From an uncultured Chloroflexia bacterium (GTDB taxonomy: Bacteria; Chloroflexota; Anaerolineae; JAAEKA01), in NCBI GenBank assembly GCA_963709505.1, contig CAVPXC010000033.1, positions 9,289-73,288 on the forward strand: a DNA stretch of 64,000 nt, written 5' to 3'. A program made the position numbers and the translations under genes. Shown here in pieces: positions 4,145 through 56,372 of this stretch (its first letter is position 1; each line of letters starts with the position of its first letter). The notes under the pieces are model-generated. The model ran no database searches. It was not told the origin of the DNA and worked only from the letters and a program-made list of their open reading frames with translations.

Positions 4145-4247
4145 CAATTGTGAATTGTGAATTGTCAATTGACAATTGCTAATTACTCGGAAGCCTCCGG
4201 ATCCGCCATTAACCATTGACAATTGACAATTCACAATTCACAATTAC
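4145..4247. repeat. Inverted pair of heptamer arrays (GTGAATT / AATTCAC family)
   Basis: The left arm (aattgtgaattgtgaattgtcaattgacaattg) and right arm (caattgacaattgacaattcacaattcacaatt) are reverse complements around a small CGGA/TCCG hairpin. Confidence 0.9.
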
Positions 4248-10889: not shown

Positions 10890-11096
10890 TGGTAGATTGG
10901 TAATGGATTGGTAGATTGGTGGATTGGTAGATTGGTAAATTGGTGGATTGGTGGATTGGTGGATTGGTAGATTGGTAGATTGGTGGATTGGTGGATTGGT
11001 GGATTGGTGGATTGGTAGACTGGTAGATTGGTGGATTGGTAGACTGGTAGACTGGCGCTCGGTACCAATCTACCAATCTACCAATCTACCGATCAC
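10890..11096. repeat. About 20 tandem octamers (GGTRGATT) followed by about 4 inverted copies (AATCTACC)
   Basis: Read directly from the sequence. Translating the array produces the spurious PIYQSTN-repeat ORFs on the minus strand. Confidence 0.95.
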
Positions 11097-11185
11097 CAAC
11101 AAACGAGGTATACCCATGACCCGCTTCCGTGCAACGCCCTTGACGCAAATGACAGATAACGCATCGCGTCAGTAATCTCAAATAC

Positions 11186-11341: not shown

Positions 11342-12277
11342 GTGTCAACCACCAGTCCTACCCCTTCCCCTGCGCTGTCTACGCGCAAAAAAGTTACTAC
11401 CCGCACCTTCCGCCAGAAGAAGCAGCGCGGCGAGCTCATCACGATGCTCACCGCGTATGACTACATGACCGCCCAGGTCGTGGATCAGGCCGGCATCGAC
11501 TGCATCCTGGTCGGCAACTCGCTGGGCATGGTCGTGCTGGGCTACGCCAACACCCTGCCGGTAACCATGGAGGATATGCTGCACCACTGCAAGGCAGTGG
11601 CGCGTGGCGCGCATATGCCGCTGCTGATCGGCGACATGCCCTTTATGTCGTACCAGGTCTCGGTCGAGGAAGCCGTGCGCAACGCGGGCCGTTTCCTCCA
11701 AGAGGCCGGCATGGAAGCGGTCAAGCTGGAAGGCGGTCGCGAGCGCGCCGATGCCGTGCGCCAGATCGTGGCAGCCGGCATCCCGGTCATGGGTCACATC
11801 GGCCTGACTCCGCAGAGTGTCTCCCAGTTCGGCGGCTTTGTGCCGCAAGGCAAGACCGCCGCGGCCGCCAGGCGCCTCGTCGAGGACGCCCAGATCCTGC
11901 AAGACGCCGGCTGCTTCAGCATCGTACTCGAATCCGTTCCCGCCCAACTCGCCGAATTGATCTCCAAGCAGCTCGAGATCCCCACTATCGGCATCGGCGC
12001 GGGTATCGGCTGTGACGGCCAGGTGCTGGTGATCCATGACCTGCTGGGCTTGTTCGACCGCTTTGTGCCCAAGTTCGTCAAGCAATATCGCAAATTGCAC
12101 GGCACGGTCGTCGAAGCTCTGGAGGAGTACAAGGCAGAGGTAGAGGCCCAAATCTTCCCCGCATTCGAACACTCGATCTTCATGGAGGAGACTGAGTGGC
12201 AGGCCTTGCTGGCTGCCCTCGAACCCCAGATCGCGCCGTCAAATGGGCGAGAGTCGACGGTGAACGGTGAACAGTGA
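11342..12277 (+). CDS. panB: 3-Methyl-2-oxobutanoate hydroxymethyltransferase
   Basis: GTG start after AAAGGAGG. Motifs MLTAYDY, LVGNSLGMVVLGY, MGHIGLTPQS. The last codons and the stop lie inside the GTGAACR array. Confidence 0.9.
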   Translation: MSTTSPTPSPALSTRKKVTTRTFRQKKQRGELITMLTAYDYMTAQVVDQAGIDCILVGNSLGMVVLGYANTLPVTMEDMLHHCKAVARGAHMPLLIGDMPFMSYQVSVEEAVRNAGRFLQEAGMEAVKLEGGRERADAVRQIVAAGIPVMGHIGLTPQSVSQFGGFVPQGKTAAAARRLVEDAQILQDAGCFSIVLESVPAQLAELISKQLEIPTIGIGAGIGCDGQVLVIHDLLGLFDRFVPKFVKQYRKLHGTVVEALEEYKAEVEAQIFPAFEHSIFMEETEWQALLAALEPQIAPSNGRESTVNGEQ

Positions 12278-12322
12278 ACGGTGAACAGTGAACGATGAAC
12301 AGTGAACAGTGAACAGTGAGCG
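12260..12322. repeat. Nine tandem heptamers (GTGAACR)
   Basis: Read directly from the sequence. In this orientation the array supplies TGA in all three frames. Confidence 0.95.
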
Positions 12323-12380
12323 GAAACGCAAACCGTTAGCTCTGCTTCCTGCTTATTGTTCACCGGCTCCCAAAAAGACC

Positions 12381-13299
12381 ATGCCCGCAAACTCCTCTGT
12401 ACTGATCGTCGGCACCGGCGCGCTCGCCAGCCTCTTCGCCGCGCGCCTGGCCGCGGCCGGGTGCGCCGTCACCATGCTCGGATCCTGGCCCGATGGCCTG
12501 GCCGCGCTTCAGACACATGGCGTGCGTCTTCTCGACGCGGATGGTGGCGTTAAGACCTACCCTGTGCATGCCACCGGAGATCCGGCCGAGTGTCGCGGGA
12601 TTCTGCAGTCGTTCGTCCTGGTCAAGGCCTGGCAAACCGCGCGCGGCCATGCAGCTTTCCGGCTGCCTCCCCTCTGCTGGGCTTGTGCTCACCCTACAAA
12701 ACGGATGGGGCAACCGAGAAATCCTTGAGCAGGCCCTTGGCCCAGAGCGCGTCGCCCTGGGTGTAACAACTCTGGGCGCAACGCTGGTGGAGCCAGGCTT
12801 CGTGCGCCTGGGCGGACAAGGGCCGATCACCCTGGGCGTCCATCCGCGGCTGCAGCCACTGACTGACCTACTGGTGCTGGCCGGCTTCGACGTGCGCACA
12901 GCAGACGACGTTGCCGGCTTGGCCTGGGGCAAGCTGGTGATCAACGCCGCGATCAATCCGTTGACTGCGCTGCTGCGCGTACCGAACGGCGAGCTGTTAG
13001 CCCGGCCGGCCGCGCGTGAGCTGATGGGCCTCGCGGCCCGCGAGGCTGCCCAGGTGGGCGCCGCCCAAGGCCTGCACCTCCCCCTAGCCATCGCCGCCGA
13101 CCCGGTGGCCGCCGCCGAAGACGTGGCACGTCGAACTGCGGCCAACCACTCGTCGATGTACCAGGACGTCCAGCACGGCCGTTCAACCGAGATCGACGCC
13201 ATCTGCGGCGCGATCGTCGAGGCCGGCGAGCGCCTGGGCATGCCAACGCCGGTCAATCGGACGTTGTGGCTGTTGGTGCGGGCGATCAGTGAAGGGTGA
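12381..13299 (+). pseudogene. panE: 2-Dehydropantoate 2-reductase with an apparent +1 frameshift
   Basis: VLIVGTGALASLFAARL...FVLVKAWQT (frame of 12381) continues as AAMQLSGCL...TLQNGWGN...SSMYQD (frame of 12493). The shift is at about 12645, in a GC-dinucleotide run. Confidence 0.75.
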
Positions 13300-13380
13300 A
13301 GGGTGGAGAGTGGAGGGTGCGGAGTGCATAGTAAACGACAGTTCTCTCCACTCTCCACCCTCCACTCTCCACCCTCCACT
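13290..13380. repeat. Inverted pair of heptamer arrays (GTGGAGR / YCTCCAC)
   Basis: The left arm 13290-13327 and right arm 13345-13380 are reverse complements. Confidence 0.9.
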
Positions 13381-16421: not shown

Positions 16422-16592
16422 GTGACCTACGAAGCCAACTGCCCGGAATGCGACGCGAGCTTGAACCTGCTCGACCCGATGGAAGGTGAGATCGTGCCCT
16501 GCCCTGACTGCGGCGTCGATCTCGAAGTAGTATCACTCGACCCGCTCAGTCTCGAGCTGGCGCCCGAGGAAGAAGAGGATTGGGGCGAATGA
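16422..16592 (+). CDS. lysW: Amino-group carrier protein LysW
   Basis: Zinc ribbon CPECD...CPDCG and the diagnostic C-terminal EEEEDWGE tail. GTG 16422 is preferred over GTG 16398. Confidence 0.8.
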
Positions 16593-17449
16593 TCCGCGTC
16601 GCTGTCCTAATCTCGCGCATTCGCGTCGAGGAAAAGCTGTTGCTCGCGGCGCTTGAGACCGCCGGTGCTGCCGTCCAGATCGTCAACGACAGCGAGCTGG
16701 TGTTTGCACTGGGCGACGGCAACAGCGTCCTTAATGCCGATGTGGTGCTGGAGCGCTCGGTCAGCACGGCGCGCGGGCTATATGCCCTGCGTCTGTTCGA
16801 ACACACGGGCCTGCCCACGGTCAACAGCTATTACACCGCCTCCACCTGCGCCGACAAGGTGCTGACTACTGCAGCGCTGGACGAAGCCGGGATCGCACAG
16901 CCACGCGCCCGCGTAGCCCTTACTCCCCAGGCAGCCCTGGCCGCCATCGAAGAGCTGGGCTACCCGGCCGTGATCAAGCCCGTTGTCGGCTCGTGGGGCC
17001 GGCTGCTGGCGCGCATCAACGACCGGGACGCGGCCGAGGCGCTGTTGGAGCACAAAGAGGTACTGGGCTCTTACCAGCACAGCATCGTCTACATCCAGGA
17101 GTTCATCGCCAAACCGGGCCGCGATATCCGCGCCTTCGTCATCGGCGACAAGACGGTCGGCGCCATCTACCGCCACTCTGAACACTGGATCACCAACACC
17201 GCCCGCGGCGGCCAAGCCTCGAAATGCCCGGTCACCCCCGAGATCGACGACCTCTGCCGCAGAGCGGCGCAGGCCGTCGGTGGCGGCGTGCTTGCTATCG
17301 ATCTACTGGAAGACCCCGACCGCGGCTTCCTGGTCAACGAAGTCAACCACACAATGGAGTTCCGCAACAGCATCGAGCCGACGGGTGTGGATATTCCGGC
17401 GCGGGTGGTGGAGTATGTGCTGCGGCGGGCAAAAGCGAGAAACCCGTAA
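16589..17449 (+). CDS. lysX: Alpha-aminoadipate-LysW ligase (RimK-type ATP-grasp)
   Basis: ATG overlaps the lysW stop (ATGA). ATP-grasp pattern [13 protein letters not shown]...YIQEFI. Gene context supports the call. Confidence 0.85.
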
Positions 17450-17492
17450 AGCGTAAGGCGTAACCCGGAAGGCGGAGGCGGAAATCCCCTGC

Positions 17493-17597
17493 TGATCGCT
17501 CACAACCAATCGCTCACCGCTTAACAAATTGCCGCCAATCGCTCACCACTCATCGCTCACCGCTAATCGCTCATTACTTATCGATCACCGATCACCC
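17493..17597. repeat. Degenerate tandem array (ATCGCTCAYY units)
   Basis: Read directly from the sequence. Its reverse-complement family (GATGAGY) reappears at 18676-18712, on the other side of lysY. Confidence 0.8.
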
Positions 17598-17602
17598 GAC
17601 CT

Positions 17603-18673
17603 ATGGACAAATCAATGGCCACGCCAGTACGAACATCTATCGTCGGCGCATCCGGATACGGCGGCGGCGAGCTGCTACGGCTGCTCTTGCAGCACCCGAA
17701 CGTCGAAATCGCTCAGGTGACTTCCGAGTCCAACGCCGGCAACTACGTGCACAGCGTGCATCCAAACCTGCGGCCAGCAGCCGGAAGTGGACGCCAACCG
17801 CTGCGCTTCACCAGCGCGGCGGAGCTGGCCCCCTGCGACGTCCTCTTTCTGGCTCTTCCGCACGGCGAAGCCCAGCGGCGCATCGATCACTTCGCCGGCC
17901 TGGCCGAACGCATCGTCGACCTCTCCGCCGACTTTCGTCTCAGCGACCCTGGTACGTATGCACGCCGCTACGGAGAGCCGCATGCCGCGCCCGACTGGCT
18001 GGGGCGTTTCGCGTACGGCCTGCCCGAGATGAACCGCGAGACCATCCGCCAGTCACGATACGCCAGCGGCGTCGGCTGCAACGCCACCGCCTCCATCCTG
18101 GCGCTACTACCATTCATCCGTGCTGGTTTGCTGCGCGATGATCGCCCCATCGTCGTCGACATCAAGGCCGGCTCCTCCGAGGGCGGCGCATCGCCCAGCC
18201 TCGCTTCACACCACCCAGAGCGCAGCGGCGCGGTGCGTTCCTTTGCGCCAACCGGGCACCGGCACGAGGCTGAGGTCGTGCAAGCCCTGGGCCGCGAGGA
18301 CGTTTATCTTTCGGTAACCTCCATAGAGCTCGTGCGCGGCGTCCTGGCCACGGCCCATGGCTGGATCAAGCCCGGCCTAAGCGACAAGGACCTCTGGCGC
18401 GCCTACCGGGCGGCCTATGGCCAGGAGCCTTTCGTGCGCATCGTCCACGAGCGCGGCGGGATCTACCGCCACCCTGAGCCCAAGCTGCTGGCCGGCACCA
18501 ACCTGGCGGACGTAGGCTGGGACATCGATCCACAGACCGGTCGCCTGGTCGCGCTGGCCGCGATCGATAACCTGGGCAAAGGCGCGGCCGGCAGCGCGGT
18601 GCAATGCATGAACCTGATGCTTGGGCTGGAAGAGACGGCGGGGTTGCAGTTTACGGGACTGCATCCGGTGTAA
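17603..18673 (+). CDS. lysY: LysW-gamma-aminoadipyl-phosphate reductase (ArgC family)
   Basis: IVGASGYGGGELLRLL N-terminus, SGVGCNATA active-site Cys region, and NLGKGAAG. Confidence 0.85.
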   Translation: MDKSMATPVRTSIVGASGYGGGELLRLLLQHPNVEIAQVTSESNAGNYVHSVHPNLRPAAGSGRQPLRFTSAAELAPCDVLFLALPHGEAQRRIDHFAGLAERIVDLSADFRLSDPGTYARRYGEPHAAPDWLGRFAYGLPEMNRETIRQSRYASGVGCNATASILALLPFIRAGLLRDDRPIVVDIKAGSSEGGASPSLASHHPERSGAVRSFAPTGHRHEAEVVQALGREDVYLSVTSIELVRGVLATAHGWIKPGLSDKDLWRAYRAAYGQEPFVRIVHERGGIYRHPEPKLLAGTNLADVGWDIDPQTGRLVALAAIDNLGKGAAGSAVQCMNLMLGLEETAGLQFTGLHPV

Positions 18674-18718
18674 ATAATGAGTGATGAGCGGTGAATGATG
18701 AGTACCGAAGGCGGAGAG

Positions 18719-19576
18719 ATGATGAAAGTATTGGTTGCAAAGGTCGGCGGCGGTGTTGGAGTCAACCTGGACGCGGTGTGCGCTGATGTGGCAGCGCTTG
18801 TGGCAAGCGGCCAGCCGATTGTGTTGGTACATGGCACATCGGCTGCAGCCGATGCGCTGGCGGAGAAGGCCGGTGTACCGGTACGGCAGCTGACTTCGCC
18901 TTCGGGCCACGTCAGCCGCCATACCGACCCGGAGATGCTGGAGATCTACGTGGCTGCAGCGGCGGGCCAGGTCAACAAGCGGATCGTAGCCGCGCTGCAA
19001 GGGCTGGGCTGCAACGCCGTGGGCCTGTCGGGGGTCGATGGCCGGCTGCTGGTGGCCGAACGCAAGAATGCAGTGCGGTCGGTTGAGGCCGGCCGCCAGC
19101 GCATCGTGCGCGATGACTACACCGGCAAGCTTGTCTCCGCCAACAGTGGCCTGCTGCAGCTGCTCTTAAGCGCGGGGTACGTCCCCGTGGTGGCGCCGCT
19201 TGCCTTGGGCACTCACGCCGAGCGGCTTAACGTGGATGGCGACCGGGCTGCAGCATTTCTTGCCACCTCGCTCGGCGCAACCACTCTGCTTATCCTCAGT
19301 AATGTGCCGGGGCTGCTAGCCAGTTTTCCCGACGAAAACTCCCTTGTGCGCCACGTAGCGCCGTCACAGCTGGACTGGGCCGAATCCTTGGCGCAAGGCC
19401 GCATGAAAAAGAAAGTGCTGGCCGCTCGCGAAGCGCTGTCCGGCGGCGTGACCCAAGTCATCCTGGCCGATTCGCGGCTGACAGAGCCGATCCGCACGGC
19501 GCTGGCGGGTGGTGGGACGTGGATATCACAGCGAATCGAGTGGACAACGAATGCGGAAGCCGGAGAGACTCGTTGA
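18719..19576 (+). CDS. lysZ: LysW-aminoadipate kinase (ArgB family)
   Basis: VLVAKVGGG and IVLVHGTSAAAD motifs. ATG 18719/18722 follows GGCGGAG. The upstream ATG 18695 lies inside the repeat. Confidence 0.8.
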   Translation: MMKVLVAKVGGGVGVNLDAVCADVAALVASGQPIVLVHGTSAAADALAEKAGVPVRQLTSPSGHVSRHTDPEMLEIYVAAAAGQVNKRIVAALQGLGCNAVGLSGVDGRLLVAERKNAVRSVEAGRQRIVRDDYTGKLVSANSGLLQLLLSAGYVPVVAPLALGTHAERLNVDGDRAAAFLATSLGATTLLILSNVPGLLASFPDENSLVRHVAPSQLDWAESLAQGRMKKKVLAAREALSGGVTQVILADSRLTEPIRTALAGGGTWISQRIEWTTNAEAGETR

Positions 19577-19689
19577 CATCATTGAGAACCGTCCTGAAAG
19601 TATGCACTGTGACATTCTACCCAAACCCTCCGCCCTCCGTGTTCGTTGTTCACATGGGAATCCGCTTGTGATATCCCCACCGCACTACC

Positions 19690-20858
19690 ATGAACTCCAG
19701 ACATCATCACCCTCGAATCCGCCCACACTTCCGGCGTCTACCCGAAGCGTCCACTCGCCATCGTCCGTGGTAAAGGGGCGCAGCTATGGGATGCCGAAGG
19801 AAACGAATACATCGACTGCGTCGGCGGCGATGGGCGCGGCCAACCTGGGCCACGCCCATCCCGCAATCGTATCGGCCATCAGCCAACAGGCCGGCCAACT
19901 CATCACCTGCCCCGAGATCTTCTACAACGACCGGCGCGCCGAGCTGCTGGCGGCACTGGCCAACGTAGCTCCTGCCGGCCTGAGCCGCGCGTTTCTCTGT
20001 AACTCCGGCGCCGAGGCGGTCGAGGCCGCGATCAAATTCGCCCGGCTGAGCACTGGCCGCCGCGAGATCGTGGCCTGTATGCGCGGGTTCCACGGCCGGA
20101 CGATGGGCGCGCTGTCGGCCACCTGGGAGCCGAAGTACCGAGAACCGTTCGAGCCGCTCGTGCCTGGGTTTGCCCATGTGCCCTACAACGATCTGGCTGC
20201 GCTGGATGCTGCTGTCACGGACTCGACCGCAGCGGTGCTGCTGGAAGTCGTCCAGGGCGAAGGTGGCGTGCGGCTCGGCGACCCGGCTTTTCTGCTCGGC
20301 GCGCAACGCCTCTGCCGAGAGCGAGGCGCGCTGCTGATCGTTGACGAAGTCCAAACCGGCTATGGCCGCACCGGCGCCCTGTTTGCCTGCGAGCATCTTG
20401 GCCTGGCGCCCGACCTGATGCCCATCGCCAAGTCCATGGCCGGCGGCCTGCCCATGGGCGCCTGCCTGATCGGGCCACGCGTCGGTCCGATCGAGAAGAT
20501 GACCCATGGCAGCACCTTTGGCGGCAATCCGCTGGCCTGCGCCGCGGCCTTGGCGACGCTGCAGGTCATGCTCGATGAAAACCTTCCCGGTCGCGCGGCC
20601 CGTTTGGGCGCATATCTACAGGAGCGCCTGCGCTCGATCCGATCACCCTTGATCCGCGAGGTACGCGGCCTGGGCCTGCTCGTAGGCGTCGAACTCAAAA
20701 CCAAAGTTACCCCCATCCTGCAAGGCCTCCAAGCTCGCGGCGTCCTTGCCCTGCCCGCCGGAACCACCGTCCTTCGCCTGCTGCCGCCGCTGGTGATCGA
20801 GCAGAGCGATTTGGAGCGGGTGGTGGAGGCAATCGAGCAGCAGCTTGCTCTCTCCTGA
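19690..20858 (+). pseudogene. lysJ: LysW-lysine/ornithine aminotransferase (ArgD family) with two apparent +1 frameshifts near the 5' end
   Basis: MNS (frame of 19690), then [43 protein letters not shown] (next frame), then [11 protein letters not shown]...DEVQTGYGRTG...THGSTFGGNP (frame of 19509). Shifts are at about 19700 and 19829. Confidence 0.75.
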
Positions 20859-20860
20859 AA

Positions 20861-20993
20861 CGCTGAATGATGAGTGATGAATGCGGAATGCGGAATGCGG
20901 AATTTGGCCGCTACTTAGAATTCCACCATTCTGCACTCCGCACTCTGCACTCCGATCACTCTGCACTCCGCATTCATCATTCATAATTCAGCA
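20861..20993. repeat. Inverted pair of heptamer arrays (GAATGCG/GATGAGT family)
   Basis: The left arm gaatgatgagtgatgaatgcggaatgcggaatgcgg is mirrored by ...ccgcattcatcattcataattc. Confidence 0.85.
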
Positions 20994-21012
20994 TTCCCTC
21001 CCGGAGACCCCC

Positions 21013-22167
21013 ATGTCCCTAGAAAACTACCACATCATCGAATCGACCCTACGCGAGGGCGAGCAGTTTATCGGCGCCCAGTTTACGCGTGAGCAGAAGA
21101 TCCGCATTGCCCATGGCTTGGACGGATTTGGCGTCGAGTATCTGGAACTCACCTCGCCACTGGCGTCGCCCGGCTGCTTGGACGACATCAAGACGATCGT
21201 CGGTTTAGGCCTGCGCGCGCGCATCTTGACCCACATCCGTTGCCACAAGGACGACGCCAAGATCGCACTCGAAACCGGCGTGGACGGGCTGGACGTCGTA
21301 ATCGGCACCTCGTCGCAGTTGCGCCAGTTCAGCCACGGAAAGAGTATCGACGAGGTCATCGACGTGGCGGCCGAGGTGCTGACCTTCATCCGCAGCCAGG
21401 CGCCAAACATCGAGCTGCGCTTCAGCACCGAAGACTCCTTTCGCAGCGAAGAAAAGGAATTGCTGCGGGTTTACCTGGCCGTCGACAAGTTGGGCGTGGT
21501 CAACCGGTTGGGCACAGCGGATACCGTGGGGATCGCCACGCCCACCCAGGTGTTACGGCTGGTCAGCACGTTGCGCCGCCTGACCACGGCGGACATCGAG
21601 TTCCACGGCCACAACAACTCCGGCTGCGCTGTGGCTAACGCATTCGCGGCGCTGGAAGGCGGGGCAACCCACATCGACACCACCGTTCTGGGAATCGGCG
21701 AACGCAACGGCATCACTCCCCTCGGCGCGTTCGTGGCCCGCATGATCACCTACGACCGGGCCACGGTGTTGCGCAAGTACCGCCTGCCGCGGCTGCGCGA
21801 CCTCGAGCTGATGGTCGCCGACATGGTTGGTGTGGACATTCCGTTCAACAACTGCATCACCGGTTTCAGCGCTTTCACCCACAAGGCAGGAATCCACGCC
21901 AAGGCGATCATCAACACGCCGGAGACCTACGAAGCAATCAATCCGCACGACTTCGGCATGAAGCGGTACATCTCGATCGCCCACCGCCTCACCGGTTGGA
22001 ACGCGGTCAAGGCTCGTGCTGAGCAGCTTGGTCTCGACCTGGACGACACCCAAATCAAGGCGCTGACCCAGCACATCAAGGCTCTCGCCGACGAGAAACC
22101 GCTGGGGTTGGACGATGTGGATGAGTTGTTGCATACGTGGGGGAATGGTAGATTGGTAGATCGGTAG
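21013..22167 (+). CDS. hcs: Homocitrate synthase
   Basis: [24 protein letters not shown] and the [14 protein letters not shown] signature. Lys-cluster context. The 3' end runs into the octamer array (GNGRLVDR*). Confidence 0.85.
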
Positions 22168-22251
22168 ACTGGTAGATTAATAGATTGGTAGATTGGTGGC
22201 GACAGTGTGCCCAATCGACCAGTTTACCAATCAATTAATCTACCAATCTAC
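22145..22251. repeat. Inverted pair of octamer arrays (GGTAGATT / AATCTACC)
   Basis: Same unit family as 10890-11096. Confidence 0.9.
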
Positions 22252-22266
22252 CCCCGGAGGTAACCC

Positions 22267-24375
<2,109 letters not shown>

Positions 24376-24390
24376 GACCCTCCGGCTTCC

Positions 24391-24425
24391 GAGTTCTGAG
24401 TTCTGAGTTATGAGTTACGAGTTGC
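24391..24425. repeat. Five tandem heptamers (GAGTTMY)
   Basis: Read directly from the sequence. The adjacent TCCGGCTTCCGAGTT is related to the hairpin at 42783-42870. Confidence 0.85.
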
Positions 24426-24468
24426 CTGTCACGCACTACTGCGCACATACGAAGGATACATTGTACCC

Positions 24469-25815
24469 ATGCCAACTATCTGTCTGATCCCTGGCGACGG
24501 TGTAGGCCAGGAAGTTATCCCCGCAGCGGCGCGCGTGCTGGCTGTGATTGTGCCGGATTTCAAGTTTGTCGAGGCCGAGGCTGGCTGGAGCTGCTTCGAG
24601 CGGCACGGCACGGCCTTGCCCGAGGCGACGCTGGCCGCGGTAGCCGCGGCGGACGGTACGCTCTTTGGAGCTACTCAATCGCCGATCAACCCCCTCCCCG
24701 GCCCTCCCCCTGCGAGGGGGAGGGAGTCAGATTCCATCCTCAGCACTTCCCCTTGCACGGGGTCTGACTCCCTCCCCCTCGCAGGGGGAGGGCCGGGGAG
24801 GGGGTTCTACCGCAGTCCGATCCTCACCATGCGCAAACACTTCGATCTCTACGCCAACCTCCGTCCTGTCAGCAGTCCCGACCTAAGAGGGCGCGCGCCT
24901 GACGGCATTGCTCCCCGCTCTCCGCTCCGCGCTTCCCCGGTTGACCTGCTCATCGTCCGCGAAAACACCGAGGGCCTCTACGCCGGCCGCGAGCGCCTCG
25001 AGGGTGACACCGCCATCGCCGAGCGCGTCATTACCCGCCGCGCCAGCGAGCGCATCGCACGCGTCGCCTTCGACCAGGCAAGGCAGCGTGCCCAGCGACG
25101 CCCTCCGTCATTGACAATTGACAATTCACAATTCACAATTGACAATTCCTCTGTTACCATCGTCCACAAAGCGAACGTGCTCAAGCTCACCGATGGCTTG
25201 TTTCGAGAAACGTGTCTCGACGTCGCGAGAGAGTACCCCGATGTGACGGTGAATGAACTACTGGTAGACGCTGCAGCGATGTGGCTGGTAAGGGATCCTG
25301 CTCGTTTCGACGTGATCGTCACCACCAACCTGTTCGGCGACATCCTGTCCGACCTGGCGGCCGGGCTGATAGGCGGGCTGGGCGTCGCGCCGTCGGCCAA
25401 CGTTGGCGCGGGGCGGGTAGCGGTCTTCGAGCCCGTGCACGGCAGCGCGCCCGATATCGCCGGCAAGGGCATCGCCAACCCGGTCGGTGCAATACTGAGC
25501 GGCGCGATGCTGTTGGAACACATCGGCCGGCCAGATGCCGCGCAACGGGTACGCCAGGCCGTCGCGGCAGCCCTGGCCGATGGCATCATGACGCCCGACC
25601 TAGGCGGTACGGCGACGACCGACCTGGTCACGAACGCCGTCATCGGACACTGTAGTCTGCCGAAACATCCACTACGAAGACTCGGGGCTGACTCTCGTAA
25701 GCGCCAGATAGCGCAAAAAAAGCTGTCCGAGTTCTTTCGAGACTCGCTGCTCGTTGATGCCGACCTGGATCTGATCCAGGACAAGAGCCTACCCAGGGAT
25801 AACATCGATCTATAA
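24469..25815 (+). CDS. hicdh: Homoisocitrate dehydrogenase (isopropylmalate DH family) carrying in-frame repeat insertions and a C-terminal extension
   Basis: [39 protein letters not shown] and [19 protein letters not shown] motifs. The extra segments map onto repeat DNA. Confidence 0.8.
24688..24806. repeat. 119-nt nested palindromic element (perfect 44-bp arms) inside hicdh
   Basis: The arms 24688-24731 and 24763-24806 are exact reverse complements. Each arm also holds CCCTCCCCCT-gcg-AGGGGGAGGG. The element is translated as [40 protein letters not shown]. Confidence 0.95.
25109..25149. repeat. Heptamer array (CAATTSA) read in frame inside hicdh
   Basis: cattgacaattgacaattcacaattcacaattgacaattcc encodes [15 protein letters not shown]. 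Same family as 4145 and 55165. Confidence 0.9.
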
Positions 25816-25829
25816 CAAGTAATGACAAC

Positions 25830-27443
25830 ATGAACGACTATCTGGACGCCAATCGTACCCTCTGGAACGCATGGACCCAACTCCACGCCGAGTCGCCGTT
25901 TTACGACCTGCCCGGTTTCAAAGCCGGCAAGAGCAGCCTGCGTAGGATCGAACAGGCTGAGTTGGGCCACAAAGTCGACGGCAAGACCCTGCTCCATCTG
26001 CAGTGTCACTACGGCCAGGACACCCTATCGTGGGCCAGGAAGGGTGCTAGCGTAACCGGTGTGGACTTTTCGCCGGAGTCCATTGCCTTGGCCCGCAGCC
26101 TGAGCGAGGAGCTAAACATCCCGGCGACGTTCATTTGCTCGGAAGTCGCGCGCCTGCCTCATGCGCTGACCGGCCAATTCGACATCTTCTTCACGTCCTA
26201 CGGCGTGTTGCATTGGCTCTCGGACCTCCGACGCTGGGGCGAAGTAATCGCTCATTTCCTCAAGCCCGGAGGAATCTTCTATATCGTCGAGGACCATCCG
26301 TTCATGCGCAACCAACCACTCTCCACCTTCCACCCTCGCCTATCCTCAGAACCGGCGAGCCAGGGTCCAACCTCCGCAGACCTCCATCTGCTCCACTCTC
26401 TGCTGCAAATCCCCTCCCTCTCTGGTCAAGAAGCAGCCGCTTCGGTGTTTCTGGCCGGCTGGATGGCCGAGCACGGCATGCGGGCCTTTGTCGACGCCGC
26501 GGGTAACGCCGTCGGCATCCTCGACGGCGGGCCAGGACTCGATGGCCAGACAGCGCAGGATATCGTTCTGCTCGGCCACATCGACACGGTCGGCGGCGAC
26601 GTGCCGGTGCGAATCGAGGACGGCAAGTTCTATGGTCGCGGTGCGGTCGATGCCAAGGGGCCGCTGGCGGCCTTTGCTGCCGCGGCCGCTCAGGTCGGGC
26701 CGCAGCCCGGCTGGCGCATTATCGTTATCGGCGCGGTCGAGGAGGAGGCCGCCACATCCAAAGGCGCACGCTTCGCGGCGACCCAGTACCGGCCCGCGCT
26801 CTGCGTCATCGGCGAGCCCAGCGGGTGGAATCGGGTGACCCTCGGTTACAAGGGCCGGCTGTTGGCTCACGTTACCGTGCAGCAGGCGATGGCCCATTCC
26901 GCCGGGCCTGACGCATCCATCTGCGAGGTGGCGGTGAATCTCTGGAATCGCGTGCGCAGCCGCATGGCCGAGATCAATTCAGGCCAGGAAAGAGTCTGGG
27001 ACCAGATACAGCCCTCTCTGCGCAGCTTTCATTCCGAGACCGACGGCCTGCAGGAGACCGCCCGGATGGTGCTGAGTTTTCGCTTGCCGCTGAACGCTGG
27101 GCCGGAAGCCATCCAGGCCGAGCTGCTGGCGCTGACCGGCGAGGCCGAACTGCGCTTCGAAGGCGCCGAGGCTGCGTTTCGCTCAGACAAGAACAATCCT
27201 TTGGTGCGCGCCTTTCTGGCTGCCATTCGCGGCCAGGGCGAGCAGCCGGGCTTTCTACTCAAAACCGGTACCGCAGACATGAACGTGGTCGGCCCTGTGT
27301 GGCACTGCCCCATCCTCGCCTATGGTCCCGGCGACAGCACTCTAGATCACACTCCGTACGAGCATGTGGAGGTCGTCGAGTGGCAGCGCGGTGTGTCGAT
27401 TCTGACAGACGTGTTGCGACGCCTGACGGCGGCCGGTCTTTAG
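25830..27443 (+). CDS. lysK: Chimeric ORF: N-terminal fragment of a class I SAM methyltransferase fused to LysW-lysine hydrolase (M20 peptidase, LysK/ArgE family)
   Basis: Residues 1 to about 160 form a Rossmann methyltransferase ([18 protein letters not shown]) that stops after FYIVEDHPF. After the repeat remnant at 26316-26337 the protein reads [15 protein letters not shown]...GHIDTV...DAKGP...EEE, which is M20-type. Confidence 0.7.
26316..26337. repeat. Remnant of a YCTCCAC heptamer array at the methyltransferase/LysK junction
   Basis: ccactctccaccttccaccctc, translated as PLSTFHP. Confidence 0.7.
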
Positions 27444-29802: not shown

Positions 29803-30194
29803 TTGGCGGCAATGGAACTTAACTATCTGGGAGTACGCAGCATTCAACCTATTGACGAACTGGATACCTTCCCGGCGCCTGCTGGCCTGGGCCGCGTCAC
29901 CATGACCTCGGACGAGTTGACAGCCCTTTGTCCCGTGACCGGCCAGCCGGACTTCTACGTGCTCACGATCGAATACGAGCCGGGCCACTGTGCATCGAGT
30001 CAAAGAGCCTCAAATTGTATCTCTGGCACTTCCGCGACCGCGGGGTATTCTGCGAGCAACTGGCGGTCGATATCCGAGACAAAGTCATAGCGACGATCCA
30101 CCCGAAGACCTGCACGGTCAAGCTGGTCCAAAAAGCGCGTGGCGGCATCACTATCGAAGCGCTGTCGGAGTATCGGCGAAGCAGTGAACAGTGA
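29803..30194 (+). pseudogene. queF: NADPH-dependent 7-cyano-7-deazaguanine reductase with an apparent -1 frameshift
   Basis: LCPVTGQPDFYVLTIEYEPG (frame 29803) joins CIESKSLKLYLWHFRDRGVFCEQLA (frame 29928). The shift is at about 29985. The stop lies inside the GTGAACR array. Confidence 0.75.
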
Positions 30195-30358
30195 ACGGTG
30201 AACGAGTGAACGGTGAACGGTGAACGGTGAACGGTGAACGGTGAACGGTGAACGGTGAACGGTGAACGGTGAACAGTGAACGGTGAACAGTGAACGGTGA
30301 ACAGTAGAAGTAGTAGCCTATACTGTTTACTGTTTACTGTTTACTGTTTACTGTTCAC
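30183..30358. repeat. About 17 GTGAACR heptamers followed by about 5 inverted copies (CTGTTYA) between convergent queF and the rhodanese gene
   Basis: Read directly from the sequence. Both convergent CDS ends lie inside the arms. Confidence 0.95.
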
Positions 30359-30994
30359 CACCGGCAAGCCTGCCTGCTCCCAGGCCTGAAGACCGCCTAG
30401 GATTGCCTTGACGTCGGTATACCCCTGATCCATCAGGAATTGCGCCGCACGGGCGCTTGATTCTTCGGCCGGTCAGGTGCAGTAGGTGAGGATCTCGGCG
30501 TTCTTGGGAAGCTCATGCCGGCCGGCCTCCAGCTCGCTAAGCGGGATCGACGCCGCTCCCTCGATGTGGGCCGCCTGGTAGTATTCCACACCGCGCACAT
30601 CGACAACCACGACCTGGCCGGAATCCAGCCGCGCCTTGGCGTCGGCCGGGCTGATCCTGGGCACGTCAGGATAGGGAACGTCCTGCTGCGAGGCTGCCGG
30701 CGACTGGTTGGCGGGCACAAGGGTCGTCACCGGCTCTTGACGATTGAACAGCAGCGCGGCCAATAAGCCGATTATCAACACGGCCCCGCCAAGGGTGAGC
30801 CAAAGTCTTCGGCTGCCGCCACCACGAGGCTGGCTTTTAGCCTGCTGCGTCTGCCCAGCGATGGACGGGACGCCCTTCGGCCGGGCTGTCGCTACAGCCG
30901 CCCCGCAGGCGGTGCAAAAACTGGCGTCCGGCTTGAGCTGCGCGCCGCACTTCGTGCAGAACTGCGTTGGGCCGGGGGATGGGGAGTCGGTCAT
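30341..30994 (-). CDS. Zinc-ribbon / TM / rhodanese-domain protein with an in-frame UGA (30475-30473); candidate selenoprotein or nonsense pseudogene
   Basis: Start MTDSPSP at 30994 after GGAG. FCTKCG..FCTACG, then a TM, then the rhodanese domain. The frame reads ...ILTYCT-TGA-PAEESSARAAQFLMDQGYTDVKAILGGLQAWEQAGLPVVNSKQ-TAA with no other stop. Confidence 0.6.
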
Positions 30995-31233
30995 GTCGAG
31001 TAATCTCCGATTTTTTCGATAGGATGGGGAGCATCGGCATTTGCCACAGGGATGCGCCAGAACCCGCAATTCGACGGTCAGGAAAAGCGCTTTCAAGGCG
31101 CTTTCGGCCAACCACTAGCCGGGGCCGAAATTCCTGCTATCATGGCAAGTGCGCCGGCCCTGCACTGGCAGGCTAGCCGTCGAATTCTGACATGATAGCG
31201 GTAGAAGCGCAAATCTGCCAAGGAGGATCATCC

Positions 31234-32743
31234 ATGAAACGGTTTTATCTGATCGCATTCCTATCGGTTGCCGTTCTGCTCGCAGCCGGGTGCGCCCAGG
31301 TCGCGCAGCCTGATCAGGCGAGCGCCGGCCAGGCCGTAGCCCAAGAAGCAGCCGCCACTGCTACCCCCAGTCAACTGACTATCGTCAAGGCGGATGTAAT
31401 GGACATGCCGGCCGGCCAACATGTGATGACGCATACGATGGTTATGACTCATACCATGACGATGGCTAATGGCACGGCGATGCCAATGACACACACAATG
31501 ATCATGACCAACACCATGCCGATGACCGACGACAAGGCAATGCCGGCCGATCACGCCCTGCACCATCCGGATATGGCCGCGGGTGCGCCGATGACCATGA
31601 CCATGCCGATGACGCACACCATGCCGATGACCGACAGCATGGCAATGCCGGCCGATCACGCTATGCACCATCCGGGGATGGCTTCGGGTACGCCGATGAC
31701 GATGACTATGCCGATGACGCACACCATGCCCATGATGCCAATGACAGGCACCATGCCCATGATGCCGATGATGCCTGCGATGCCAACGTCTGACAACCAG
31801 AACATGGACTCCATGCAAATGGGTCAGATGATGGACATGATGGGCCAGATGATGCAGATGATGGGCCAAATGCACATGAAGATGGGCGCGGGTGGCATGG
31901 ACATGACAGCCAGTATGCCAATGACCGGCACTATGCCCATGATGCCGATGACCGGCACCATGCCCATGATGGGCGGCCAGGGCACGCAGTCCATACAGAT
32001 GGGCCAGATGATGGACATGATGGGCCAAATGATGCAGATGATGGGCCAGATGCACATGAAGATGGGTATGGGCACGATGGCTCCGGATACGGCCAGCCAA
32101 GGCTCCGGCATGTGCAAGATGATGGGCGGCAAGGGCTGCGACATGATGAAGCAGGCAGCCGCCGGCCAAGGCTCAAGCATGTGCAAGATGATGGGCGGCA
32201 AGGGCTGCGCTATGATGAAGCAAGCAGCCGCTACCGGCCAAGATTCCGGCATGTGTAAGATGATGGGCGGTAAAGGCTGCGCTATGATGGCCGCCATGCC
32301 GATGACCCCTACCATGCCGATGACGCCTTCGATGCCCATGACAGGGACGATGCCAAGCGCGGCGGCTCAACCGGCTGCGGCGAGTGGCTATGCGCCTCAG
32401 ACGGCCGAGGCCGGCGCGGTAACGGTTACCCTCACGCCCCGCAACCTGGCCGATCCCGCCGCCCAAACCCTCGACTTCGACGTAGCCCTGAACACCCATT
32501 CCGTTCGACCTGAGCGGCGACCTGGCCAAGCTCGCCACACTACGGGCAGGCAGCAACCAGGTTGCTGCGAGCACCTGGACTGCCCCGGCAAGTGGGGGCC
32601 ATCATGTTGCAGGTTTGCTCAGTTTCCCCGCTGTTGACGCAAAAGGTCAGCCGCTGTTGGAAGGGGCCAACACGGTCGTAGTGAGCATCCGCAACCTGGC
32701 GGGCGTGCCGCTCCGCACCTTCACCTGGATGTTGGGTCAATGA
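31234..32743 (+). pseudogene. Extremely Met/His/Cys-rich lipoprotein (putative Cu(I) binder) with an apparent +1 frameshift before its C-terminal domain
   Basis: RBS AGGAGG. Lipobox LAAGC. MPMTHTMPMTD runs, GQMMDMMGQMMQMMGQMHMKMG twice, MCKMMGGKGC[DA]MM three times. After LNTHSV the protein continues in the next frame as DLSGDLAKLATLRAG...GGHHVAGLLSF...TWMLGQ, and the stop overlaps the MCO ATG. The shift is at about 32504. Confidence 0.65.
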
Positions 32744-33801
32744 GACAGTCAACAGCAAAAGCAGTTGGAGCGCTGCTGGCCGGCGCGCTCTTGCTGGTAG
32801 CATGCAGCCAGAGGACGGCGCAGCAACTGCCGGCGGCGGCGCCGTCCCCTACGCCCAGCAGTCTCAGCGGACCAAAGCCCTCCTCCGGCATGGCCCACAT
32901 GATGGCCTCACTGCCAGACGAGAACGTTCCCGCCGCTACGGTCAACGAGGGCAACCAGCCTCTAACCAGCCGCGACGAAAACGGGGTTAAGGTCTTTGAG
33001 CTGACCGCCAAACCGGTTCGCTGGAACTTCGGCGAAGGCATCGAACAGGTGGCCTGGACCTACAACGGCATGGTTCCGGGGCCGCTGATTCGGGTCGTGG
33101 AAGGCGACAACGTGCGCTTCGTCGTCAAAAACGAATTGCCTGAGCCAACGACTATTCACTGGCACGGCATCGAGCTACCGAACAGCATGGATGGCGTGCC
33201 CGGCATGACCCAGGAGGCGATCCAGCCCGGCGAAACTTTTACCTACGAGTTCGTGGCCAAGCCGGCCGGCACCTTCTGGTACCACAGCCACGTCGACAGC
33301 GACGTCCAAATCGGAGTTGGCCTGCACGGTGCCTTTATCATCGACCCCAAGACACCCGATGCCGATCCGCCGGACGTGGACGAGGTGGTGATGCTCAATG
33401 AATGGCGCTTCGTCGACGGCAAGACCTACGCCTCGATGCCGATGTCGGGCATGGACCCCAACTACTTCACCATCAACGGCAAGATCTTCCCGGCCACAAA
33501 GACCGTCCATGCCAAGGTGGGTGACCGCGTGCGGTTGCGCTTCATCGCCGCCGGCCAGTTCGTGCACCCGATGCACCTGCACGGCTTTCCCTTCAAGATC
33601 GTCGCCACCGACGGGCATCCTGTACCCGAGGCGTCACAACTGACCAAGGACACCGTGCTGGTTGCGCCCGGTGAACGCTACGACGTCGAGTTCGTCGCCA
33701 CTGAGCCGGGCATGTGGATGATCCACTGCCACATCACGCATCACACCACCAACGACGGCGAGGAGCCGGGTGGGTTGATGATGGTGGTCAATGTCGAATG
33801 A
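32740..33801 (+). CDS. Small (two-domain-size) multicopper oxidase
   Basis: Copper-ligand blocks HWHG, WYHSH, HPMHLHG and HCHITHH..M. 353 aa with a lipoprotein-like leader. Confidence 0.85.
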   Translation: MRQSTAKAVGALLAGALLLVACSQRTAQQLPAAAPSPTPSSLSGPKPSSGMAHMMASLPDENVPAATVNEGNQPLTSRDENGVKVFELTAKPVRWNFGEGIEQVAWTYNGMVPGPLIRVVEGDNVRFVVKNELPEPTTIHWHGIELPNSMDGVPGMTQEAIQPGETFTYEFVAKPAGTFWYHSHVDSDVQIGVGLHGAFIIDPKTPDADPPDVDEVVMLNEWRFVDGKTYASMPMSGMDPNYFTINGKIFPATKTVHAKVGDRVRLRFIAAGQFVHPMHLHGFPFKIVATDGHPVPEASQLTKDTVLVAPGERYDVEFVATEPGMWMIHCHITHHTTNDGEEPGGLMMVVNVE

Positions 33802-36211: not shown

Positions 36212-37657
36212 ATGTCCTTTGCCAAGCGTTTCCGTGGTTTGCTCGAAAACCCGCATTTCTGGGTGGTCGTTGCCGGATTGGCAATCACCACTTGGCTGCA
36301 TTACACCACTAGCCCGCTGCTGTTCGAGCAGCACACCGTCTACCGCTACCTCTACTTCCTGCCCGTCGTCTACGCCGCCCTGCGTTTTGGGCTGTGGGGG
36401 GGATTGCTCGCCGGCCTGACAGCCAGCTTGCTTTTTGCACCGCACATCTGGCTCAAATTCGGCCACTTCCCCGAGGAGAGCCTCAACGATCTTTTTGTCG
36501 CCGTAGTTCTGACCTTGGTGGGCATTTTGACTGGTGCGCTAACTGATGCGGAGCGCCGCCAGCGGCGGAAGCAAGAAACTGCCAGCGCTCAACTGGCCCA
36601 GTCTTTGGCGCAACTGGAGCACCGCACGGCCGCGCTGGAAGAGATGCAACGCTATATCAACAGCGTGCTAGCCTCGCTGAGCTGCGGCGTGATTACTGTC
36701 GACGCAGCGGGCCGCGTCACGACCGATAATCCGATGGCCCGCACCCTCCTAGGCAGCAATTTGATCGGCCAGCCGCTGCCCGCTTCCCTCGTTAACCGGT
36801 CAAAATCAGGCTTTGATGGCTACCGCCAGATGCGGTTGGCCGGCCGGCCGGTAGGAGTGCACGCCGGTCCGCTGACCAGCGGCGATGGCAGGCACATGGG
36901 CACCGTGCTCGTGCTGGACGACCTGACCGAAGTCAAGGCGCTTGAGGAGCAGGTGCGGCGGGCAGAGCGGCTCAGCGCGCTCGGTACGCTTGCGGGCGGC
37001 GTGGCGCACGAAGTGCGCAACCCCGTGGGCATCATCCGCGCCAGCGCGCAGCTCATGGGCTCGCTTCCAAGCGTCGCCGAGGATGTCGGCAGCCACGAGT
37101 ATTTGTCGGTGATTACGCAGGAAGCCGATCGCATCGACCGATTGGTCGAAGATCTGCTCGGCTACGCCCGCGCCGGCGAGCTGAGCCTGGCACCGGTGGA
37201 CATGGAAGAGTTGGTCCGCAGCACCGCCGCGCGACTGGCCTCGCTGACCGAGCAGGCGGACGTCGATCTGGTGGTTGAGGTTGAGCCTCGGCTGCCTCGG
37301 GTTGAAGGCGATGCCGGCAAGCTGGAGCAAGTGCTGTTGAACCTGGGCCTAAATGCCATCGCCGCGATCCAGGCGGCCTATCCACGCCCAGCGGCCGGCG
37401 GCCGGCTGGTACTGTCCGCACAGCGCGCGCCGGGCGGCCTGCACTGCGTCGTGCGCGACAACGGCCAGGGCATGCCCGACGACGTGCGCGTCCACATCTT
37501 CGACCCCTTTTTCACCACCCGCGACGACGGCACCGGCCTGGGCCTGGCCATCGTCCAACGCATCGTCGCCGACCACGGCGGCACAATCGAGGTCGCCAGC
37601 GAGCCTGGCAAGGGCGCTACGTTTACCATCTGGCTGCCTGCGATGAACGAGGAATGA
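36212..37657 (+). CDS. Membrane sensor histidine kinase (PAS, HisKA, HATPase)
   Basis: 4 TM, H-box [11 protein letters not shown]-box LNLGLNAI, G-boxes DNGQGM and GTGLGL. The last codons and the stop lie inside the GATGAAC array. Confidence 0.85.
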
Positions 37658-37757
37658 TGAACGATGAACGATGAATGCGGGCGGACGAAGTTTCCGCATT
37701 CATCGTTCATCGTTCATCATTCCTCGTTCATCATTCCGCATTCATCGTTCATCGCTG
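37642..37757. repeat. Inverted pair of heptamer arrays (GATGAAC / GTTCATC), about 39-bp perfect arms
   Basis: gatgaacgaggaatgatgaacgatgaacgatgaatgcgg is mirrored by ccgcattcatcgttcatcgttcatcattcctcgttcatc. Confidence 0.95.
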
Positions 37758-37825: not shown

Positions 37826-38621
37826 GTGCCCAACTCACCCGTTCAGCTAGCCATCGCCGAATGGCAAGACAAGCAGATCACCGGCACCGAATTGATGCGC
37901 CGGTTGGTGTCCTTCGATAAGTGGATGGTTCCGGTGTCTGAAGCCGCAGCGGCCGAAATGGTTAGCACGAGGAGCAGCCTCGCGCTTGATGTACAGCCAG
38001 GACGGCGAAGGCGTCTCCCGTCTGTACCTCTTCTCCGACGGCGAGGCCTACGATGCGTTCCGCGCGTCCGTGGGGCAGGATGCATCCGAGCAGCACTTTC
38101 TATCCACGACCGGGACATGGATCTTTCAACTCCCCCTGGACCCACTCGACTTCATCGAGATCGATCCGGCGACGCCCTGGCAGATTGGTTATCACAAAGA
38201 GCAGTTCCCCCGCTTGCGAGCCATGGCTGCCGCCGTCGAGGTCGAACTGGCGCTGGCAGCCTTGCGCGCCGGCACGGCAGAGCCCGGCTCACTCACGAAG
38301 GTGCGGCAATACGAGCACTACATTCTAGCCGTCACCAGCCGGGATGGCGGCCACACCCTGGCCCTCGCGCCGGACGATCGCGACCGCACGCTAGCCGCCA
38401 TTTTCACCTCCGACGATAGCTTCCAAGCCTTCCTCCCCGAAGGCGGAGCGCTACTTTCGGACGGGCAGCTCCTGCGCGTTGCGCTGGCCGGCCCACAGCT
38501 CTTCGAACAACTGTCCCGGATGTCGCTGGACGGCGTCGTCTTCAACTGCAGCGGCCCCGGCCGCCCCATCGCCTTTGCCCAGGCATTTCTCACTGTCATC
38601 CTGGAGGCCAAATCGGAATGA
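37826..38621 (+). pseudogene. SseB-like protein (two SseB_N-like halves) with an apparent +1 frameshift
   Basis: GTG 37826 follows AAGGAG. ...KWMVPVSEAAAAEM (frame 37784) joins ...LMYSQDGEGVSRLYLFSDGEAYDAF...AAIFTSDDSFQAF (frame 37986). The family call is weak. Confidence 0.45.
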
Positions 38622-38622
38622 T

Positions 38623-38691
38623 GAATGATGAGCGATGAATGATGATTTCGAAATCATCATTCATCGCTCATCATTCATCATTCATCGTTCA
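38623..38691. repeat. Near-perfect palindrome built from GAATGAT/GATGAGC heptamers
   Basis: ggaatgatgaatgatgagcgatgaatgatgatttc | gaaatcatcattcatcgctcatcattcatcattc. Confidence 0.95.
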
Positions 38692-42782: not shown

Positions 42783-42870
42783 TACCTCGTAAGGCGTAAC
42801 ACGTAACTCGGAAGCCGGAACAACTCGATACCCTCCGGGTTCCGGGTTACGTGTTACGCCTTACGAGGTA
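42783..42870. repeat. 25-bp-arm perfect hairpin (TACCTCGTAAGGCGTAACACGTAAC...) with an inner CCGGAAC/GTTCCGG stem
   Basis: The arms are 42783-42807 and 42846-42870. Confidence 0.95.
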
Positions 42871-55159: not shown

Positions 55160-55164
55160 GCCGA

Positions 55165-55272
55165 GAATTGTCAATTGTGAATGGTCAATTGTCAATTGCT
55201 AATTGACCTTTGACCATTCACAACGACTTTTCTCATTGACAATTCACAATTCCCAATTCACAATTGACAATT
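55165..55272. repeat. Inverted heptamer arrays (AATTGTC / GACAATT family)
   Basis: Same family as 4145-4247. Confidence 0.9.
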
Positions 55273-55283
55273 CTTCCCCCTCC

Positions 55284-56234: not shown

Positions 56235-56235
56235 A

Positions 56236-56362
56236 TGACTGGGTGACTGGGTGACTGGGTGAAGGGTTTTCCTTTCGGTCCTTTGTCACCAGTCACCCTG
56301 TCACCCTGTCCCCTGACGACCCAGTCGACCCTAGTCACCCAATCACCCAGTCACCCAGTCAC
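56236..56362. repeat. Inverted octamer arrays (GGGTGACT / AGTCACCC)
   Basis: Read directly from the sequence. Confidence 0.9.
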
Positions 56363-56372
56363 GATCACAATC

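Follow-up and report, generated by a model that had tools for sequence, protein, structure and literature searches.

Short imperfect palindromes of the REP (repetitive extragenic palindromic) type occur in bacterial genomes singly or as inverted dimers that enclose a spacer and form a larger hairpin, an arrangement captured by the REPIN concept, which is reportedly due to Bertels and Rainey in 2011. REP singletons and dimers lying wholly within known genes have been described in several species, where they encode 20–30 and up to 43–82 residues that presumably form loops or linkers, and gene-inactivating REP insertions are purged from the population (Di Nocera et al., 2013, PMC3733652). [quoted passage not shown] Here we describe a palindrome within the gene for homoisocitrate dehydrogenase (HICDH) of an uncultured Chloroflexia bacterium. 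The palindrome lies in a 64,000-nt stretch of contig CAVPXC010000033.1 (hereafter the window, whose numbering is used throughout) and is probably a dimer of a small REP-like repeat, placed within a gene, translated with it and similar to an RPE in behaviour.

The palindrome spans 119 nt. Its two 44-nt arms, 31 nt apart, are 100% complementary in a repeat search of the window, in agreement with the first-pass annotation, which had described them as exact reverse complements, each with a hairpin of its own. Both arms hold a perfect 10-bp hairpin (CCCTCCCCCT-nnn-AGGGGGAGGG), a pattern observed twice in the window against 0.02 occurrences expected from window shuffles, and the right arm presents four G-tracts on the mRNA strand. 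The host gene and the parts of the element are as follows.

24469..25815, + strand: HICDH open reading frame (ORF) of 448 residues that hosts the element
24685..24807, + strand: loop-coding segment of 123 nt, 41 codons (INPLPG...GRGF), which replaces an 18-nt ancestral loop
24688-24731, + strand: left arm, one repeat unit consisting of outer C block, inner hairpin and tail
24688-24701, + strand: outer C block of the left arm, AACCCCCTCCCCGG
24702-24724, + strand: inner hairpin of the left arm, CCCTCCCCCT-GCG-AGGGGGAGGG
24725-24731, + strand: tail of the left arm, AGTCAGA
24732-24762, + strand: spacer of 31 nt, TTCCATCCTCAGCACTTCCCCTTGCACGGGG
24763-24806, + strand: right arm, the left-arm unit inverted
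24763-24769, + strand: tail of the right arm, TCTGACT
24770-24792, + strand: inner hairpin of the right arm, with a 10-bp stem
24793-24806, + strand: outer G block of the right arm, CCGGGGAGGGGGTT

The predicted RNA fold of the segment has a free energy of -121.8 kcal/mol, compared with -64.8 +/- 4.3 kcal/mol for shuffled sequences (z = -13.4). An Rfam scan of the element returned sub-threshold microRNA-hairpin models only and no RNA family at threshold.

With REP sequences and REPINs the element shares a short, imperfectly palindromic unit that occurs singly or as an inverted dimer with a spacer, the larger hairpin formed by the dimer, and the in-frame position of some copies. It differs from them in having no GTAG/CGTC tag and in a unit assembled from runs of C and of G, whose third block, a mirror copy of the stem, is one-sided. 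No RAYT or TIRYT gene was found among the 40 largest ORFs of the window or next to units at ~240 loci. REP families are usually species- or genus-specific, whereas this unit recurs nearly unchanged in many phyla; its dispersal is seen in metagenomes and other genomes, and the 64-kb window holds three units. The first-pass annotation had called the palindrome RPE-like. That likeness stands for its behaviour, namely an in-frame, translated insertion in housekeeping genes (HICDH and hacA) at sites compatible with the fold, but does not extend to membership in the Rickettsia families: RPEs are AT-rich, ~100–150 bp long, fall into defined families (RPE-1 to RPE-10) and are restricted to Rickettsia, whereas the HICDH element is GC-rich, resides in a host of an Anaerolineae/Caldilineae-like lineage that homologue names assign to Chloroflexota, and has no sequence relationship to them. 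MITEs such as Correia and Nezha are likewise small and non-autonomous, with inverted ends and a hairpin-forming transcript; the HICDH element differs in that it showed no duplication of a target site, and no insertion sequence with matching ends is known as its parent.

Assemblers can create palindromes, and the source reads of the window were not located (at most 20% of the sampled words occur in any one run), so a chimeric fold-back made by the assembler has to be considered. Such an artefact is very unlikely, because four further assemblies, made from different samples with different assemblers, have the element at this very codon (L121, L122, L248 and L250, which with the window make five independent assemblies) and because filled and empty sites are polymorphic among relatives. 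Short contigs in metagenome run X3 also span arm, spacer and gene flank, and the reading frame is kept; we give a chimera next to no credence.

Comparison with homologous sequences shows that the segment is an insertion, as had been proposed from the sequence of the window, and not a native loop. In two close relatives, L123 and L249, the site is empty and consists of 18 nt (AACGAGATTGTACCCGGC or AACGAAGTCGTGCCCGGC) encoding NEIVPG or NEVVPG. The loop of Thermus HICDH also has six residues at this site, and an HMMER alignment to that enzyme pairs query residues 4–78 with chain residues 5–79 and query 112/117 onward with chain 79/83 onward, so that ~34–35 residues of the window protein have no counterpart. 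Among 96 close homologues, all of them proteins of Chloroflexota-type metagenome-assembled genomes (MAGs) where named, the stretch between the invariant SP and YRSPIL has six residues in 54, seven in three and 14–65 in the remaining 39, which include the window. The insertion is in frame as first annotated, but its net gain is 35 codons (123 nt for 18 nt) rather than 40. The annotated translation through the insert was reproduced exactly and contains no stop; this is weak evidence, because two of the three forward frames of the element are open, and the informative part is a length that is a multiple of three. A protein search with the 44-residue insert peptide gave no candidate in a word-indexed search and three irrelevant low-complexity matches in an exhaustive phmmer search.

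An intein or intron, which would be removed from the product, was considered separately and rejected: the insert consists of 41 Pro/Gly/Ser-rich codons with no splicing motif or ribozyme fold, and matches no Rfam family at threshold.

The host gene appears to be a functional HICDH. The best relative of its product with a solved structure is the Thermus thermophilus enzyme (3asj/1x0l; E ~2e-92), and its best NCBIfam score is 376.5 bits, below the model cutoff of 409.8. The ratio of nonsynonymous to synonymous substitution rates (dN/dS) is 0.17–0.19 between the window and its relatives and 0.15 for another filled/empty pair, so by this measure the gene is under purifying selection. The window protein keeps the residues that are invariant in an alignment of 115 sequences (by definition). 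An AlphaFold2 model computed with that alignment has a mean pLDDT of 76 and a TM-score of 0.90 to 1x0l_A, normalised to the target. Residues 73–116 are modelled as coil, with pLDDT below 50 at 83–110, between a strand at 63–66 and a helix at 117–124; the insert is thus predicted to lie in a disordered surface loop. It is placed between the invariant S71-P72 and Y114/S116 and ends two residues before Y114 and four before S116, which we take to align with the substrate-binding, phosphorylated Ser113 of Escherichia coli isocitrate dehydrogenase (ICDH). The loop therefore lies at the edge of the active-site cleft and is evidently tolerated by the enzyme.

This position, only two to four residues ahead of Y114 and S116, together with the long loops found here in many orthologues, would suit a selected protein feature, for example a regulatory or interaction loop beside the active site. 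We find this hardly plausible: inversion or replacement of the spacer alters the peptide completely, the loop is predicted to be disordered and is absent from close relatives, and conservation is seen in the DNA palindrome and not in the amino-acid sequence.

The arms correspond to a dispersed unit of ~36 nt, ACCCCCWCCCYRR-CCCTCCCCCT-nnn-AGGGGGAGGG, with a 10-bp stem, a 3-nt loop and a 13-nt outer block; each window arm is this unit (AACCCCCTCCCCGG plus hairpin) extended by the tail AGTCAGA. The smaller relative in hacA reported by the first-pass annotation at about 22980–23030 proved to be the same unit as a single in-frame copy, which L121 shares.

22983..23026, + strand: solo unit in frame in hacA, AACCCCTCCCCCAA-CCCCTCCCCT-GGG-AGGAGAGGGG-GGTCAGA

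Distant HacA orthologues carry an unrelated palindrome (RSNDFSRS...TTEVVTT) at this position, and in the Anaerolineales MAG L082 a near-identical unit is, on our own reading, apparently in frame in a different gene. For intragenic units elsewhere, a test for open frames is non-discriminating in GC-rich DNA.

A scan for the inner hairpin in one representative genome per species returned at least 120 stretches, and the matches listed come from Alpha-, Beta- and Gammaproteobacteria, Nitrospirota, Chloroflexota, Planctomycetota, Armatimonadota, Actinomycetota and others, including cultured Bradyrhizobium, Methyloligella and Roseobacter. Of 125 listed hairpins with enough flanking sequence, 81% have the block ACCCCC[A/T]CCC[C/T]RR on one side, 8% on both sides and 11% on neither. 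A stricter 33-nt pattern gave at least 120 matches in metagenome contigs, all of those listed being solo units, mostly GACCCCCACCCCAACCCTCCCCCTTTCAGGGGGAGGGAGTC. In each wastewater or sediment run that holds relatives of the window, the arm (at least 92% alike) occurs in 6–22 contigs with unrelated flanks, the wastewater runs having 11–22 such contigs each, and runs X2, X3 and X5 also contain another inverted pair of these arms, separated by 9 nt. Only 12 stretches of viral contigs contain the hairpin, which gives no sign of a phage vehicle. A full-text literature search with the unit sequence found no description of such a repeat family.

For the G-rich strand of the unit, prediction favours a G-quadruplex over the hairpin. 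With the G-quadruplex option of ViennaRNA, a three-layer quadruplex is computed at -22.8 kcal/mol against about -12 kcal/mol for the hairpin as DNA, and at -25 to -27 against -21 to -22 kcal/mol as RNA in two of three variants. The one-sided outer block fits the third strand of a purine-motif triplex; a simple outer stem also explains part of the data, since certain copies are flanked by outer blocks on both sides or have a partner upstream. Among alphaproteobacteria, many copies pair their outer block GACCCCCACCC with GGGTGGGGGTC a few bases upstream, giving two adjacent hairpins, and in copies from Gallionellaceae the unit is preceded by TTCTAC. These partnered blocks and the TTCTAC indicate that sub-families of the unit exist, and they may reveal what recognises it.

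Among relatives of the window the element varies as a unit of DNA. In L121 the arms are identical to those of the window save at their inner ends, and the spacer is inverted, matching that of the window as its reverse complement (alignment score 35 in that orientation vs 7 forward; shuffles 8.8 +/- 4.6, maximum 25). The spacer of L250 is oriented as in the window, and in our alignment this copy has an additional 42-nt tandem copy of the left unit with the frame kept. L248 combines the same arms with a different middle. L122 has a shorter spacer and paired changes in its arms that keep complementarity (CCGG to CCAA opposite CCGG to TTGG, and loop GCG/CGC to CGG/CCG). In short-read assemblies the complete copies measure 123, 102 and 126 nt, all multiples of three. 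The L121 copy has 125 nt and comes from a long-read assembly with many split genes, which makes its frameshift unreliable.

In chloroplast DNA, hairpin loops flanked by short inverted repeats are well known to undergo flip-flop inversion. The two spacer orientations between otherwise identical arms resemble it, with the difference that here the exchange takes place in coding sequence and rewrites ~10 residues; it is indistinguishable from re-insertion of the whole element in the opposite orientation.

Judged from these sequences, presence of the element is polymorphic among close relatives. Over a 760-nt core, the filled genes L121 and L250 are 91–95% identical to the empty L123 and L249 (L121 alone, 94–95%), and over the 216 nt that lie immediately upstream of the insertion L121 is 94–96% identical to the same empty genes. 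Filled and empty genes interleave in a rough neighbour-joining tree, which has no support values and is indicative only. More distant HICDH genes of Chloroflexota carry other C/G-rich palindromes at the identical codon: a single 69-nt hairpin with outer and inner stem in L244 and L247, a nested double-hairpin palindrome in L245, and another in L246 that includes three tandem 42-nt units (GEGPGVRS repeats). Such recurrence could reflect either a small number of insertion-tolerant loops in which survivors pile up, or the attraction of copies by hairpins or a specific target.

The same variation could be produced in place, with repeated template-switch (quasi-palindrome) errors expanding a hypervariable Pro/Gly-coding loop and no mobile element involved. 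The loop is indeed an indel hot spot, with lengths of 6–65 residues across the 96 homologues, the outer left block overlaps a native-like CCCGGC, and L250 and L246 contain tandem unit duplications. We nevertheless regard an origin of this kind as quite unlikely, since the same 36–44-nt unit occurs in hacA, in other genes and at no fewer than 120 unrelated loci, where it would be hard to make independently, and since the arms are near-identical at distances at which synonymous sites are saturated.

The arms have diverged little for the age of the genes that carry them. Between the window and L248, which differ with a synonymous divergence (dS) of 1.27, the left arm is 91% and the right arm 82% identical; between the window and L122 (dS 0.63) the values are 86% and 73%. 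A Jukes–Cantor estimate for unconstrained sites predicts ~40% identity at dS 1.27 and ~58% at dS 0.63, and by this yardstick the arms evolve more slowly than synonymous sites. The insert peptide is not conserved between relatives, because inversion and replacement of the spacer rewrite it. Slow arms combined with an unconserved peptide place the constraint or homogenisation at the level of DNA or RNA. A protein might recognise the arms, each arm might serve as the template for correcting the other, further copies might convert them, or the element might have been re-acquired more recently at the site. The perfection of the arms had been taken as a mark of a recent event. That argument fails, since an element at the same codon persists across dS 0.6–1.3 with arms still 73–91% identical, and arms that change more slowly than neutral sites give no evidence of recency.

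Slow change would also be expected if the palindrome were a selected cis-acting nucleic-acid structure (hairpin, G-quadruplex or cruciform) that tunes transcription, mRNA stability or translation of hicdh/lysK, with the peptide as a by-product. The compensatory changes in L122, the retention of some palindrome at the same codon in distant orthologues, the very stable hairpin (-121.8 kcal/mol, z = -13.4) and the G-quadruplex preference predicted for the G-rich arm all agree with this explanation. It is unlikely all the same: relatives 94–96% identical, with the same operon, do not have the element; its spacer and middle are freely replaced; the unit is scattered over unrelated contexts and phyla; and hairpin-templated correction yields compensatory changes without selection.

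We therefore favour, with fair though not full confidence, an interpretation in which the segment is a small REP-like palindromic repeat in dimeric form, located inside a gene and translated, with the behaviour of an RPE. The two inverted C-tract/G-tract hairpin units around the 31-nt spacer have the head-to-head dimer layout of a REPIN, each unit being a putative non-autonomous REP-like repeat. The ribosome would read through the element as a Pro/Gly/Ser-rich disordered surface loop, with 41 residues for six, and presumably the only variants to survive are those with lengths divisible by three. In its DNA the segment behaves as an element and not as protein sequence, coming and going among relatives and duplicating its units in tandem. 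Its spacer flips, either because the arms recombine with each other or because the element re-inserts in the opposite orientation, and the arms stay near-identical and self-complementary as the rest of the gene diverges. Arrival would most likely have been by single-strand transposition of the HUH/RAYT-like kind, which recognises hairpins, or by templated copying from genomic copies, and the likeness of the arms may then have been kept by correction within the palindrome.

Several observations weigh against interpretation as a translated REP-like dimer. The different palindromes at the same codon in distant orthologues could instead reflect an ancient insertion that selection has maintained. 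C-tract/G-tract hairpin units are found at only three places in the 64-kb window, the two HICDH arms and hacA, all of them in genes. No transposase of any kind and no RAYT is encoded by the 40 largest ORFs of the window, and none of ~240 fetched unit loci adjoins an HUH-like ORF, a weak test that a single-copy gene elsewhere would escape. The window copies have no GTAG or CGTC tag next to the stem and end in AA/GAC...AGTC(AGA); in the Gallionellaceae copies a CTAC is present, on the wrong side of the stem. Comparison of filled and empty alleles revealed a replacement of 18 nt with no target-site duplication or direct repeat, and the CCGG that the alleles share is uninformative on target duplication because it is itself palindromic. 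Nor is the filled allele a plain empty site plus an insert, as the 12 nt upstream of the shared CCCGGC differ too. Since the whole 18-nt loop apart from this CCCGGC is replaced, cut-and-paste does not explain the filled allele; the replacement may stem from later extension of the palindrome through template switching. Finally, translation of the segment and activity of the enzyme are inferred and not observed.

A wider proposal, which we put forward tentatively and regard as doubtful, would unite the units of all phyla in one family defined by outer block, C-arm, loop and G-arm, whose G-strand switches between hairpin and G-quadruplex or purine-motif triplex. Such a family would spread horizontally by a hairpin-specific integration system and would repeatedly colonise the same loops (HICDH loop 1 and the HacA loop) in Anaerolineae-like Chloroflexota. 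If this were true, colonised loops would attract further copies through earlier hairpins or a specific target, and surface loops of enzymes would be continually rewritten by dynamics at the level of DNA.

HICDH has two further sites of variable sequence in the window. Loop 2 (24870-24940, after ANLRP) is a third variable site, at which the window has ~12 extra residues; L121, L123 and L250 carry another in-frame palindrome there (GTGCCCGGCAC...GTGCCGGGCAC), translated ANVPGTLSHGL...LEVPGTG. In loop 3 (25110-25147) the heptamer ATTGACA is repeated five times and translated in frame before a conserved segment, and orthologues have other heptamer-type repeats at this site, for example FAIRSFAIRSFAIRS. 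In metagenome run X2 the word depth of the loop 3 heptamer stretch is ~4000, against ~10 in its flanks. A C-terminal extension of ~50 residues (397–448), modelled at pLDDT below 50 for residues 426–448, is common to the homologues P0016 and P0092 and absent from most others.

The HICDH gene belongs to a lysine operon, in which two neighbouring genes are composite.

16580-27443: LysW-type alpha-aminoadipate lysine operon lysX-Y-Z-J, hcs (homocitrate synthase), hacAB, hicdh, lysK

HacA (residues 1–445) and HacB (531–684) are fused in one ORF of 702 residues (22267-24375), and a hairpin of heptamer repeats, whose arms are GTGGAGG... and ...CTCCACT, encodes their linker (23585-23856); the two proteins are also fused in L245 and L247 and separate in L244. 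The ORF at 25830-27443 joins a SAM-methyltransferase-like domain (residues 44–157) to a downstream LysK ([LysW]-lysine hydrolase) domain (residues 183–534), whereas in L121 the two pieces are separate ORFs.

A second and far more abundant class of repeats in the window consists of intergenic hairpins in which one arm is made of tandem 7–8-nt units and the other is the reverse complement. They lie at 4146-4245, 10890-11099, 12257-12323, 13296-13380, 20859-20995, 22146-22252, 30184-30359, 37640-37755, 38616-38683, 42783-42870, 55164-55274 and 56218-56371, with units such as TGGTAGAT (20 copies), GTGAACG (17 copies), AATTGTG and GATGAAC. An ORF of Met/His-rich tandem repeats with periods of 18–180 nt (31192-32637), just upstream of a multicopper oxidase gene (32740-33801), probably encodes a Met-rich copper-binding protein.

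Translated intragenic palindromic repeats are known classically from Rickettsia and from a few REP cases, and the HICDH element would add environmental Chloroflexota and a central amino-acid pathway to their range. The near-identical unit across phyla, with its predicted G-quadruplex potential, points to a widespread repeat family. Inserts of this type cause gene calls to be split or made longer and lower the scores against family models, as with the NCBIfam score of the HICDH ORF, which falls below the cutoff. The filled and empty alleles, the two spacer orientations and the unit duplications found among close relatives amount to a natural experiment on the way enzymes take in selfish DNA and on the persistence of perfect palindromes within genes.

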